DNA from: Eledone cirrhosa
Lineage: Eukaryota
NCBI GenBank assembly: GCA_964016885.1
Contig: OZ024758.1
Coordinates: forward strand, 19,778,001 to 19,842,000
Length of the DNA: 64,000 nt
Direction of reading: 5' to 3'
Part shown: piece by piece, positions 661 through 42,645 of the stretch
How the letters are laid out: the number at the start of each line of letters is the position of its first letter
Numbering within the stretch: the first letter of the stretch is position 1
Position numbers and translations under genes: made by a program
The notes under the pieces: generated by a model
Told to the model about the DNA's origin: nothing
Databases searched by the model: none
The model's input: only the letters and a program-made list of their open reading frames with translations

Positions 661-821
661 GTAAATATACACGGGTGTGTATGATTGTGTATAGAAGATT
701 ATATTAATAAGAGGAATTCCAACTGTGTCTGATTTACTCGTTTTATTTGCAATCCTTTAAACTATATATAATGGTATTATAATGAAATAGTATGATAGAA
801 TATTAAATTCTAAGTGTTAAT

Positions 822-860
822 TGAACAAGTACTTTCATGCTTTCGCAATCTTCAGGTTCA
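822..860 (-). ncRNA. Minimal type I hammerhead ribozyme motif (mirror copy)
   Basis: Reverse complement of 935-971, with a 5-bp stem I (UGAAC/GUUCA). Confidence 0.8.
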
Positions 861-934
861 TGATATGTGGTGACAGTCGAGTTTGCAATTTTCAACTGTT
901 GAAAATTGCAAACTCGACTGTCACCACATATCAC

Positions 935-971
935 GAACCTGAAGATTGCGAAAGCATGAAAGTACTTGTTC
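935..971 (+). ncRNA. Minimal type I hammerhead ribozyme motif
   Basis: GAAC-CUGAAGA-U-UGC(GAAA)GCA-U-GAAA-GUAC-UU-GUUC: stem I GAAC/GUUC, conserved core, palindromic loop 3; AATAAA follows at 972. Confidence 0.8.
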
Positions 972-1090
972 AATAAACACTTAGAATTTAATATTCTATC
1001 ATACTATTTCATTATAATACCATTATATATATTTTAAAGGATTGTAAATAAAACGTGTAAATCAGACAAAGTTAGAACTCCTCTTATTAA

Positions 1091-4075
1091 TATATATATA
1101 TATATATATATATATATATATATATATATATATATATATATATATATATACAATATATATATATATATATATATATATATATATATATATATATACAATA
1201 TATATATATATATATATATATATATATATAGTATACAATATATATATATATATATATATATACAATATATATATATATATATATATATATATATATATAT
1301 ATACAGTATATATATATATATATATATATATATATAGTATACAGTATATATATATATATATATATATGTATATACATACAGTATATATATATATATATAT
1401 ATATATATATATATATATACAGTATAATATATATATATATATATATATATACAGTATATATGTATACATATATATATATATATATACAGTATATATGTAT
1501 ATATATATATATATATACAGTATATATGTATACATATATATATATATATACAGTATATATGTATACATATATAATATATATACAGTATATTTGTATATAT
1601 ATATATATATATATATACAGTATATATGTATATATATATATATATATATATACAGTATATATGTATATATATATATATATATATACAGTATATATGTAAT
1701 ATATATATATATATACAGTATATATGTATATATATATATATATATATATACAGTATATATGTATATATATATATATATACAGTATATATGTATATATATA
1801 TATATACAGTATATATGATATATATATATATACAGTATAATGTATATATATATATACAGTATATATGTATATATATATATATATGTATATATATATATAT
1901 ACTGTATATATATATATACTGTATATATATATGTATATATATATATATATATATATACTGTATATATATATATATATATATATATATATATATACTGTAT
2001 ATATATATATACTGTATATATATGTATATATATATATATATATATATACTGTATATATATGTATATATATGTATATATATATATATATATACTGTATATA
2101 TATGTATATATATGTATATATATTATATATATATATATATATATATACTGTATATATATATATATACTGTATATATATATATATATATATACAGTATATA
2201 TGTATATATATGTATATATATATGTATATATATGTATATATATGTATATATATATGTATATATATGTATATATATATGTATATATATGTATATATATATA
2301 TACTGTATATATATATATATATATATATATACTGTATATGTATGTATATATATATATATATATATATATATATGTATATGTATGTATATATATATATATA
2401 TACTGTATATATATATATATATATATATATACTGTATATATATATATATATATATATATATATATACTGTATATATATATATATATATATATATATATAC
2501 TGTATATATATATATATATATATATATATACTGTATATGTATATATATATATATACTGTATATGTATATATATATATATATACTGTATATATATATATAT
2601 ATACTGTATATGTATATATATATATATATATATATACTGTATATGTATATATATATATATATATACTGTATATGTATATATATATATATATACTGTATAT
2701 ATATATATATATATATACTGTATATATATATATATATATATATATACTGTATATATATAATATATATATATATATACTGTATATATATATATATATATAT
2801 ATATATACTGTATATATATATATATATATACATATATATATATATGTATACTGTATATATATATATATATATATATATATATACATATATATATATATGT
2901 ATACTGTATATATATAAATATATATACATATATATATATATGTATACTGTATATATATATATATATATATACATATATATATATGTATACTGTATATATA
3001 TATATATATATATACATATATATATATGTATACTGTATATATATATATATATATATATATATATATATACATATATATATATATGTATACTGTATATATA
3101 TATATATATATACATATATATATATGTATACTGTATATATATATATATATATACATATATATATATGTATACTGTATATATATATATATATATATATATA
3201 TATATATACATATATATATATATGTATACTGTATATATATATATATATATATATACATATATATATATATGTATACTGTATATATATATATATATATATA
3301 TATATACATATATATATATGTATACTGTATATATATATATATATATATATACATACATATATATATATGTATACTGTATATATATATATATATATATACA
3401 TACATATATATATATGTATACTGTATGTATATATATATATATATATACAACATATATATATATATGTATACTGTATATATATATATATATATATATATAC
3501 ATATATATATATGTATACTGTATATATATATATATATATATATACATATATATATATGTATACTGTATATATATATATATATATATATTATATACATATA
3601 TATATATATGTATACTGTATATATATATATATATATATACATACATAAATATATATGTATACTGTATATATATATATATATATATACATACATATATATA
3701 TATGTATACTGTATATATATATATATATATATACATACATATATATATATGTATACTGTATATATATATATATATATACATACATATATATATATATGTA
3801 TACTGTATATATATATATATATATATATACATACATATATATATATGTATACTGTATATATATATATATATATATATACATAATATATATATATGTATAC
3901 TGTATATATATATATATATACATACATATATATATATGTATACTGTATATATATATATATATATATATATACATACATATATATATATATGTATACTGTA
4001 TATATACTATACTATATATATATACATACATATATATATATATGTATGTATGTATGTATATAAGACATATATACT
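1091..4075. repeat. 3-kb compound (TA)n array with ACAAT/ACAGT/ACTGT/ACAT-GTATACTGT spacers
   Basis: Direct reading; this array is the source of the poly-YI ORFs. Confidence 0.98.
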
Positions 4076-39654: not shown

Positions 39655-39878
39655 ATATTGTTATACTTTGGGAGGTTCATGTTGCCAATAAGAAACACAC
39701 GCACCTGTTGCTTTCACTTCAATTTATTATATATTTATAAATTTATATAATAAATTGAAGTGAAGCGACTGGTGCGTGTGTTTCTTATTGGCAACATGAC
39801 CCTCCCAAAGTATAACAATATCGGATTCAACACACGAATTCAGATAGAGAATCTTGCTAAACAAATTCAGAAATGAAA
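39655..39878. mobile_element. Fold-back of PLE terminal sequence (arms about 83 bp, centre ~39738, tail 39821-39878)
   Basis: tattgttatactttgggagg...atttataaat...cctcccaaagtataacaata; same sequence as 6355-6500. Confidence 0.9.
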
Positions 39879-40010
39879 TATATATATATATATATATATA
39901 TATATATATAAATATATATATACATGTATAAATATATATATATATATATATATATATATATATATATATATATATATATATATATATATATATATATATA
40001 TATATATATA

Positions 40011-40233
40011 TATTGTTATACTTTGGAAGGTTCATGTTGCCAATAAGAAACACACGCACCTGTTGCTTTCACTTCAATTTATTATATATTTATAAATTTA
40101 TATAATAAATTGAAGTGAAGCGACTGGTGCGTGTGTTTCTTATTGGCAACATGACCCTCCCAAAGTATAACAATATCGGATTCAACACACGATTTCAGAT
40201 AAAGAATCTTGCTAAACAAATTCAGAAACGAAA
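40011..40233. mobile_element. Tandem duplicate of the 39655-39878 fold-back
   Basis: Near-identical copy about 355 bp downstream. Confidence 0.9.
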
Positions 40234-42404
40234 TATATATATATATATATATATATATATAAATATATATATACATGTATAAATATATATATATATATAT
40301 ATATATATATATACATGTATAAATATATATATATATATATATATATATATATACATGTATAAATATATATATATATATATATATATATATATATATATAC
40401 ATGTATATATATATATGTATATATACATGTATAAATATATATATATATATATATATATATATATATGTATTATATATATATATATATATATATATATATA
40501 TATATATATATATAATATGTGTGTCTGTTTAGGTCGGCATTATATCTAATAGAAATGCATATTATAATAACATGTTACAGAGGCGAATATTGTCATAAAT
40601 TATTTTTTACGTCCATTATTGAACGGAAGTTAATTGTATAAAATTTGACTATGAAATATACATTAAGCTATATTAATATGACATTCCGCTTTATAAATCT
40701 ATGGTTAATATATCTTATAAATTATACAGCTTCTGACATAGTCAATATTTAAAAATAATGTAGAATTTACATTAGGGAATGCATTTAAATGTATTAACAA
40801 AGATATACAAAAAATGTAAATGTTTGTACATATATTTCTTTTATAACATTTTATATCGTAGTTTCACCCACATCAGATTCACCCACATCGGCTATATTGC
40901 AGGTGGGAGGTCACTGTTAATTTCCTAGCATTACCTTCCTGCTGTGATATACAGAAGAATCGTTGTATACAATTATATTGACACAAATATGTTTTTGTTA
41001 TTTCTATTATCGATCTTGTAAAAGTAGGGGGGTGATAGACAAAATTTGCTACAAACTTACACGATAATCCTTCTCTCTAACGACAAAAAAATAAAATGCC
41101 ATGATGTATATTTGTTCGAAACATCAAAATTGTTCATTCCATACCATGAAAACATCCTTCCGATATATGTTGGGTAAATTTTGAAAGAACACACGTGATA
41201 TCCTTTTGTTCAATCATAGAGGTAATAGCCGTAATAACTCCCTTTTGAGGAACTATTTCAAACTGTAAATCTCATCAGAAGGATTACAACGCAGGGAACT
41301 GTACTAAGTAATCACATAGTGGTGTTAAAGTGAGCGACGTGAGAATGGAGGAAGTTATTTAATTGTAATTATCTATTCTCCTCAAAGACGGTTAACGATA
41401 TAACAAAAATAATTATATACACAGTTTGATATTTGATAGCTGAGAGCTATCTCCGGATACACATCATCATTATTGGAGGGACAATCGAGAGATCATATAT
41501 ATATATATATATATATATATATATATATATATATATATATATATATATATATAGTCCAACCTACTTAATTAATCTACTGGTGTTTAAAATACGGAAAAAA
41601 TAGTTACCAAGGACGTTGACCAATGGAAACATTTTTGAAGTTATAAGAACGAAATCAACCAAAATAAATACATTTTATGAAAATCTTTGGAGTTGTAGAA
41701 GAGAAATCATCCTAGCAACAATTGTTCTTGAATCTAAAATGAAAGATGATGTACTTGCAGAAGATTAATTATTTTTACAGGGATAATTCATATCATGCAA
41801 GGATATAATAACGTATTTCAAATGACAAGACGAAATATAACAAGTATCCCAACCGAGGCTCTCTAATTATTTATAAGCACTAAAGGAAAACTGGACATCA
41901 AAACTTTTTTATCTCGTCCGATGCAACAATAATATTGACTGTAATTTCAGGAAGGTTTTATGATTATATACACAAGTGAAGTAGTGTGGAAGACGTTATA
42001 ATGGCTTCCAAACTACAGAGCCTGGTGAGAAATATGTTCAAACCCAGTAAAATTAAATAATTAATAACTTTAAATTAAATAGCAGCGTGCCGAGTATGAT
42101 TCAGATAGCGACATCTAATGTTTTGTTTCTGGCTAAACTAATTATGCAATCCGAACCTAATAGTGTCGCCAGCATCTTACGTAACCAGGCCATTCAATTA
42201 TATATATATATATATATATATGTGTGTGTGACTTTGCAGCAATAAAGTTTGAAGACTAAAATCCAAAGAGGGATTGATAAGGATAAATATATAACAGATA
42301 TATAAGAACCGTAGAGCAAATATATATATATATATATATGTACTATTAATAATACATTCGAAGACTAATATACAAATAGGGCTCGATAGGGCCACGCACA
42401 CATA

Positions 42405-42645
42405 TATAGTGGTAGAACACAGGAACGTAATATCCGTAGTGCTAGAGCACTCAGACAATGGGACGAGTTATGTAGAAGTGGTTACACAACAGATAGTTCA
42501 CCCTACCGAGAACAATTGTTTCACCTTAGCGGATCCTCAGCTCGGAATGGACATGGCTATACAGAACATGTCCATTATGAGCTGAGGATCCGCTAAGGTG
42601 AAACAATTGTTCTCGGTAGGTTGAACTAACTGTTGTGTAACCACT
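42405..42645. mobile_element. Fold-back unit (arms ~42477-42555 / 42567-42645, tail 42405-42476)
   Basis: agtggttacacaacag...aatggacatg-loop-catgtccatt...ctgttgtgtaaccact; abuts (TA)n. Confidence 0.9.
42579..42614 (+). ncRNA. Minimal type I hammerhead motif (mirror copy at 42508-42543 on minus)
   Basis: GAG-CUGAGGA-U-CC(GCUAA)GG-U-GAAA-CAAUUG-UU-CUC; palindromic loop 3. Confidence 0.8.

Follow-up and report, generated by a model that had tools for sequence, protein, structure and literature searches.

Fold-back units in a TA-rich window

The window analysed here comprises 64,000 bases of the Eledone cirrhosa genome (GenBank assembly GCA_964016885.1, contig OZ024758.1, positions 19,778,001 to 19,842,000) and contains five inverted repeats set in (TA)n, each with its 3' ends pointing outward and with a tail on one side only (about 43-103 nt). 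These fold-back units are almost certainly insertion products of Penelope-like elements (PLEs). Short tandem repeat, mostly (TA)n, masks 14,011 bases of the window, and an inverted-repeat search without masking was swamped by TA repeats. A TA array at 1094-4081 has periodic CAG/CTG interruptions that flip orientation near 1900 and 2200, so that the microsatellite itself is inverted.

Unit 1 consists of a tail (658-700, minus strand), a tailed arm (701-896, minus strand) that corresponds to the last 198 nt of a Neptune/Nematis-type PLE, the centre base of a fixed junction at 897 (T or A among the copies) and an untailed arm (898-1093, plus strand). In unit 2, the tail (4639-4723) and the tailed arm (4724-4767, about 50 nt of a Hydra-type PLE end), both on the minus strand, are followed by an untailed arm of about 61 nt (4768-4824, plus strand) that begins at the length ceiling of its family. 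Unit 3 is asymmetric: an untailed arm (35960-37271, minus strand), from the 3' untranslated region (UTR) of a young Hydra-type PLE, faces a longer tailed arm (37269-39033, plus strand; tail at about 38932-39033), and about 310 nt (37272-37581) are unpaired. Unit 4a (39655-39878, plus strand) is composed of an inverted untailed arm, an axis near 39738, a tailed arm and a tail (39821-39878), with the hammerhead cut off, and unit 4b (40010-40233, plus strand) is its local duplicate; the two represent a single insertion duplicated together with its flanks (355-bp period, 98% identical). Unit 5 has a tail (42405-42472, minus strand) and arms from a Hydra-type PLE end (42473-42645) with an axis near 42561. 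Measured against the parent elements, the tails are about 43, about 85, about 103, 58 and 68 nt long in units 1 to 5, respectively.

A sequence-only reading of the window had described this layout, with a one-sided tail of 40-100 bp, in five unrelated families of units lacking an open reading frame (ORF), and had pointed to a coding PLE with the same inverted end plus tail at 60190-62330. The layout was recovered as described. The PLE (60190-62324, plus strand) does have an inverted short end plus tail (60190-60287), but it is 5'-truncated and broken rather than an intact coding copy. It belongs to a sister family of unit 4, with identities of 87% across 77 nt at the end and of about 70% within the ORF (DNA comparison with the frame of the unit-4 parents L119/L120), so the families are not all unrelated, and the copies at 39655 and 40011 are one duplicated insertion. 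The copies indeed lack an ORF; their families do not, each having a coding parent.

Hammerhead motifs

Hammerheads were searched for with a descriptor of the minimal type I motif, whose strict version demands a palindromic helix III. Complete motifs were found in each arm of unit 1 (827-855, minus strand; 939-967, plus strand), unit 3 (36006-36043, minus strand; 38855-38892, plus strand) and unit 5 (42511-42540, minus strand; 42582-42611, plus strand), all of them having a short helix III and U-U as the cleavage dinucleotide, and both arms of unit 2 carry the 3' half only, just as the sequence-only reading had it. The strict version gave six matches in the window, four of them in units 1 and 5, against a background of 0.02 on average and 1 at most in 100 first-order Markov controls. 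The matches listed from an Rfam scan of the window (150 of 263) included no hammerhead family and were all sub-threshold, of hairpin/miRNA type. No motif was found by the descriptor in unit 4, because the motif of its parent starts 189 nt upstream of the end without the tail, beyond the axis.

The 5' half of the unit-2 hammerhead was found in the unit-2 parent, which adopts the fold of a three-way hammerhead junction, its core being U3-A8 and its position 7 variable (34/34 pattern matches, L189-L218); U3-A8 covariation in hammerheads has been described (PMC3088659). The hammerhead in the pseudo-long terminal repeat (pLTR) of this parent has a GUC site and a helix III of 5 bp, and its helix II is long. 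Two more hammerhead-like motifs lie beside TA repeats, at 49824-49854 (minus strand, within 49657-49940) and 35587-35632 (minus strand), and the short islands that hold them probably represent solo pLTR stumps from further families. In a few copies the 5' end is no more than about 4 nt away from the cut site predicted, namely at 123-126 versus 125 in unit 1 (L164/L165, L166), 35-40 versus 38 in unit 5 (L251, L254, L260, L277) and 150-158 versus 154 in unit 4 (L103, L106, L093). Such ends could be complementary DNA (cDNA) from self-cleaved RNA; the cases are few, and the sites in units 1 and 4 are also quasi-palindromic or TA-like.

Parent Penelope-like elements

Each of the arms matches a coding PLE of the same genome at its 3' end (pLTR), and in each family some copies extend upstream into the PLE ORF. 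Solo, short, long and palindromic copies exist together for the families of the units. By motif, three parents are Hydra-type (units 2, 3 and 5) and two are Neptune/Nematis-type (units 1 and 4). The unit-1 parent (L156) has a 775-aa frame matching Pfam RVT_1 (below the cut-off, E 2.9e-6) and GIY-YIG, in which a DKG motif, a CX4CxxC linker and CCHH are recognized, and a 295-nt direct pLTR containing a TATA box lies upstream. The unit-3 parents (L151, 873 aa; L152, 844 aa) have open frames with DKT, an RWR variant of RWK and CxCx5C, and without CCHH. The first 21 residues of L151 are encoded by the tail, and the unit-1 tail likewise continues, in L156, in frame upstream of the ORF. Among the atlas neighbours and homologues of the unit-3 parent, GIY-YIG, RVT_1 or HTH_animal was found in part of the members, and BLASTP similarity between the unit-3 and unit-1 parents is weak (21% over 495 columns, E 0.034). 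The unit-3 family is taken to be young because 20 of 40 scored copies are at the top score, with 100% identity over 274 nt. Units 2, 4 and 5 have partial parental frames with reverse transcriptase (RT)-thumb, linker and nuclease motifs, those of unit 2 (L214/L215/L218) and unit 5 (L005/L009/L014) with CxCx5C.

L151 and L152 have a tandem unit of about 5 kb and an AT-rich 3' UTR of about 2.4 kb with an 80-bp duplication. Another degraded ORF of a Hydra-type PLE lies at 55522-56952 (plus strand) and shares 44-50% identity with the protein of the unit-3 parent.

Position of the axis

Searches of the 3.0-Gb genome gave 324-2504 first-look candidates per family, of which 40 were scored and 30 fetched each time; a tail-only query for unit 1, which is of low complexity, gave no matches in the genome search. 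Among 29 unit-1 loci anchored at the 3' end (own locus included), 16 end at 191-201 nt, seven are shorter and six longer. An inverted partner is present in 18, and 17 of these have exactly one tail; four solo copies likewise end at 193-199 nt. The exact 31-nt junction of unit 1 occurs at 532 places in the genome (control, 0), and a word reading through the same position has 1796 matches, with fetched copies of 214 to more than 1400 nt (15 rows).

Unit 2 has a ceiling instead. Of 30 tail-anchored loci, 26 are inverted, and 23 are short palindromes with varied junctions and a ceiling at 60-61 nt: no arm of these is longer than 61 nt (67 where a chance match lengthens the alignment), and none ends at 68-97 nt. 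Axes are scattered in unit 5 (17 of 30 loci inverted; 23 at 23-105 nt and seven at 524-1432 nt) and varied in unit 4, where 15 of 30 rows are inverted and eight form a loose cluster near 245-266 nt. The readable lengths in unit 3 vary from 214 to 1429 nt, the mapping being restricted by 1.5-kb flanks and AT-rich repeats.

The sequence-only reading had proposed this tabulation, taking a fixed axis at many independent loci as support for units that replicate as such. The axis turned out to be fixed in unit 1, limited by a ceiling in unit 2, and varied or scattered in the other three. An RNA with a fixed 5' end also fixes the axis, which confounds the test, and a fixed palindrome axis alone does not demonstrate a self-replicating unit.

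Formation of the palindromes

The units are very probably short 3'-end pieces of five coding PLEs, placed head to head in (TA)n, each pair likely having been built in a single insertion from two separately primed cDNAs. One of the origins considered in the sequence-only reading, 5'-truncation during PLE integration, is thus supported by the coding parent of each family and by the solo, long and palindromic copies that exist together. In the route that we propose, a PLE protein would nick both strands of the TA repeat, and each nick would prime reverse transcription at one of two neighbouring RNA start sites, which are the end of the pLTR and that of the tail. As antisense strands, the cDNAs would extend toward each other, and their 3' ends would be joined via a few complementary or untemplated bases. 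Such head-on joining would yield the outward 3' ends and the one-sided tail; the two arms do usually terminate at different points, one with the pLTR and one with the tail. The hammerheads would be passengers inherited from the pLTR. The PAc protein is described as cutting and extending both target strands, with two adjacent RNA start sites that bound the tail, a bias toward AT-rich DNA, a predicted dimer and hammerhead cleavage that is dispensable in vitro (PMC11167929); the in vitro system, as presented there, ends before the joining step.

The first 50 listed of the 532 exact-junction loci of unit 1, all on one contig and selected by the junction alone, were examined. One tail is present in 41 of them, none in eight (some from poorly aligned arms) and two in one. 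Of 30 loci, 17 have the centre base of the tailed arm and 13 do not (p = 0.58), and both states occur within one haplotype. In 34 loci with both arms aligned, the shared-variant distance is 0.037 within a locus versus 0.313 between loci.

A rather doubtful alternative keeps the same origin and changes the joining: a tail-primed cDNA would run off the RNA end, snap back and copy itself to the pLTR end (or prime itself on an antisense template, as in PMC3846280), and later spacer inversions would scramble the centre. It accommodates the common haplotype of the two arms at one unit-1 locus, a unit-1 junction that may be drawn as a single base pair closing a 3-nt loop, and several junctions that lie in quasi-palindromes (unit 4). 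However, the centre base should then always come from the tailed arm, which is not so in the 13 loci mentioned above, and many junctions have extra or repeated bases. A tail on the shorter arm cannot be copied from a longer arm without a tail, and short tailed arms are combined with long untailed arms at ten loci (L055, L060, L183, L188, L100, L102, L223, L225, L241 and L246). Frequent later inversions would also be needed, though arm divergence in these copies is no more than about 2.4%. Two cDNAs primed independently account better for the centre base and for the pairs of short tailed and long untailed arms, and the snap-back origin suggested in the sequence-only reading is probably wrong. 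Twin priming is therefore given a modest preference over snap-back as the joining route.

A putative RNA start

If the transcript's 5' pLTR copy were the site of twin priming, the two cDNAs would both run off the RNA start, and this would give the fixed axis at 198 nt in unit 1 and the ceiling at 60-61 nt in unit 2. In the unit-1 parent, a TATA box (TATAAAAG) starts at 229, that is, at -31 from the stop at 198, and a TATA-like word in the unit-2 parent starts at 91, which is -31 from 60. The stops of both units fall in a word that we take to be initiator-like. From these motifs, the fixed stop is probably the RNA 5' end, reached by reverse transcription begun on the 5' pLTR copy of the transcript; Penelope transcripts are reported to have their start in the upstream pLTR (PMC2377424). 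Two identical cDNA ends that meet at the unit-1 stop could anneal through five bases, with a T-T mismatch at the centre, the repair of which either way would produce the two centre states. Since the inferred RNA start of unit 2 is inside the helix-II loop of the hammerhead, the 5' pLTR copy of the transcript would miss the 5' half of the ribozyme.

The fixed stop is unlikely to be an RT stall or a microhomology hot spot rather than an RNA start. The unit-2 ceiling does fall within a hairpin of loop II in the parental hammerhead, and the unit-1 stop is a 5-nt quasi-palindrome that would favour joining. In contrast to what a stall or hot spot would predict, solo copies joined directly to TA end at the same place, the -31 spacing to a TATA or TATA-like word is common to two unrelated families, and no short unit-2 copy ends at 68-97 nt.

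Contigs of four runs of unrecorded type were also placed on the parents of units 1 and 2: the summed depth drops 10-40-fold near the pile-ups in X1 and X5 and not in X4, and one X5 contig has 12 fold-back letters at the unit-1 axis, too few to bridge it. This depth is no copy number, and neither observation was used.

Other words stand on either side of the loose pile-up (3' UTRs of L119 and L014; 61936-61946 and 62018-62028 in the window). They are a GCGCATGCGC word, presumably NRF1-like, and, in the family of unit 4 and the window PLE, a AAAATGGCG word, which we take to be YY1-like. These two kinds of words possibly represent a TATA-less promoter. The short copies of unit 5 never exceed about 105-111 nt, just below the NRF1-like word at 126.

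Do the palindromes propagate as units?

Among 21 unit-1 junction loci with arms agreeing at all 17 columns, 12 different patterns were found, and no arm-specific variant recurs in three or more loci of the junction set. This variant pattern fits the expectation for de novo formation from many source elements and not for palindrome replication. RNA editing as a source of the arm differences was discarded, there being no A>G excess (two on tailed and two on untailed arms).

The sequence-only reading had offered, as another possibility, self-propagating retrozyme-like palindromic RNAs. In such a scheme, the hammerheads would process the transcript of a whole unit, and PLE proteins would then re-insert it in trans. 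This is very improbable. One exact junction at 532 loci, compared with 1796 read-through matches, and intact hammerhead cores in three units are in its favour, and pLTRs are described as able to mobilise sequence in trans (PMC3846280). However, in the 50 of 532 loci studied, unit 1 has many haplotypes, both centre states within one haplotype (17:13) and no inherited arm-specific variant, and its solo copies end at the same base. Units 2 and 4 have no whole hammerhead, and the TATA box lies outside the short units; we infer that the short stumps, without an upstream TATA box, would be dead ends. Each strand of a unit has one hammerhead, and same-strand tandem repeats with a hammerhead, as in retrozymes (PMC7229834; bioRxiv 10.64898/2026.07.22.740005), were not found in the window. 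In predicted folding, a read-through RNA buries its one sense hammerhead in a long hairpin (-289.9 versus -223.9 kcal/mol in unit 1 and -152.3 versus -79.2 in unit 5).

Assembly or library fold-back chimeras are hardly credible, for although TA-repeat palindromes assemble poorly and the 4a/4b duplication could be an assembly stutter, the ends are precise and family-specific (tail or none), the layout is repeated at hundreds of loci, and arms differing by 4-9% (units 1, 4 and 5) are not expected of a chimera from one molecule. Miniature inverted-repeat or fold-back DNA transposons were rejected, as the termini are asymmetric (tail) and the parents encode RT rather than transposase.

A possible record of PLE integration

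We tentatively propose, as one possible account of the whole, that the palindromes are a genome-scale fossil record of PLE integration, in which a dimeric RT-endonuclease would twin-prime from the two target strands at the pair of RNA start sites, in many cases with the 5' pLTR of its own transcript as template. Synthesis would run off at the RNA start, and the two cDNA ends would anneal across a central T-T mismatch. No precedent for this was found in the literature searched, and how the inverted pLTRs and tails of PLEs are formed is named as an open question in PMC8557442. If true, inverted pLTRs, the one-sided tail and ORF-less stumps of fixed length would all follow from a single mechanism, and PLE promoters could be mapped from DNA alone. 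As elements, the units are ordinary truncated PLE insertions, and their value lies in the mechanism, with its clear predictions: one family combines 532 identical junctions with a centre base in two states and a TATA box at -31, and these hundreds of copies may record how PLEs insert.

Several points weigh against the main explanation. If recombination between the arms inverted the spacer after insertion, the centre base would likewise become random and long and short arms would trade places, and arm-to-arm conversion could erase arm-specific variants; later inversion or conversion thus mimics the evidence, and twin priming is favoured without being airtight. Self-priming on an antisense template is what PMC3846280 proposes. 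In a query-biased unit-1 set, one site differs between the arms in 11 of 17 loci; we regard this as an artefact of queries carrying the variant, and it is absent from the junction-selected set. The RNA start is deduced solely from motif spacing, the TATA-like word of unit 2 has two mismatches to TATAWAWR, the cluster of unit 4 is without a TATA box, and Drosophila Penelope is described as having an internal promoter without TATA (PMC2377424). Tails of 58-103 nt (four families) exceed the 30-40 bp of published descriptions. The sample is small (50 junction loci out of 532, all from one contig, and 30 loci for each search), the parent ORFs of units 2, 4 and 5 are known in part only, Pfam gave no match for the Hydra-type frames, and the clade labels of the parents rest on motifs.

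Other repeats in the window

Further copies of these families, which the sequence-only reading had not mentioned, are present in the window. The unit-4 family has a longer, non-palindromic copy (6357-7004, minus strand) that keeps its hammerhead (6556-6590). Solo stumps comprise a tailed, non-palindromic one of the unit-5 family in (TA)n (16451-16556, minus strand), a tailed one of the unit-2 family (24924-25043, plus strand), an untailed one of the same family that begins near the ceiling (59500-59562, plus strand) and one of the window PLE's 3' end (50104-50246, plus strand). A long interspersed nuclear element-type ORF with an APE endonuclease and RT (50535-53672, minus strand) has a stop between two long frames. 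Six copies of a repeat of about 190 nt resembling short interspersed nuclear elements, 75-88% alike, are distributed at 17906-18094, 26186-26372, 30206-30376, 48581-48993 and 62517-62714.

Comparison with known systems

In endonuclease-bearing (EN+) PLEs, an inverted 5'-truncated copy, a one-sided tail, a pLTR hammerhead and a TA target are described (PMC8557442, PMC3846280, PMC4209133). The elements found here share the head-to-head arms, the tail at one end, the pLTR hammerhead, the microsatellite target and the partial-tandem parents. Their parents have an ORF with RT plus a GIY-YIG-type domain at its C terminus, and an adjacent inverted 5'-truncated copy was found in 18/29 (unit 1), 26/30 (unit 2), 15/30 rows (unit 4) and 17/30 (unit 5). 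The tail at one end continues, as read in L151 and L156, into the 5' region of the downstream copy, and the pLTR contains a minimal or variant type I hammerhead. The flanks are (TA)n, against which a target-site duplication would not stand out.

Hydra elements are described as inserting in (TA)n, an inverted 5'-truncated copy plus tail being typical of PLEs (PMC8557442). The unit-3 parent resembles the Hydra clade of that account in DKT, RWR for RWK, CxCx5C, the lack of CCHH, the (TA)n target and the hammerheads, and the unit-2 and unit-5 parents do so by CxCx5C only. However, Hydra elements are "generally <3 kb" (PMC8557442), whereas the unit-3 parent is about 5 kb with its 3' UTR of about 2.4 kb. 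The parents of units 1 and 4, with a CX2-5CxxC linker and a CCHH-type GIY-YIG, are similar to Neptune/Nematis PLEs (PMC8557442), and their motifs fit either clade. Unlike the EN+ PLE insertions described, the units often have arms of 50-200 nt without an ORF, tails of 43-103 nt and, in two families, a sharply preferred axis.

In the twin priming of L1, two target nicks each prime a cDNA, and joining at microhomology leads to an inversion; the second primer acts upstream of the first cDNA, and there is no duplication. In the PLE route proposed here, by contrast, both cDNAs would start near the same 3' end, resulting in a palindrome. The units are also similar to metazoan non-LTR retrozymes in being non-coding, with a type I hammerhead, and related to PLE pLTRs (PMC7229834; bioRxiv 10.64898/2026.07.22.740005). 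Retrozymes as characterized there, however, are same-strand tandem repeats that yield circular RNAs, whereas the units here are inverted pairs with one hammerhead per strand. In short, the units very probably represent the known layout of PLE insertions in new families, and not a new self-copying ribozyme RNA.

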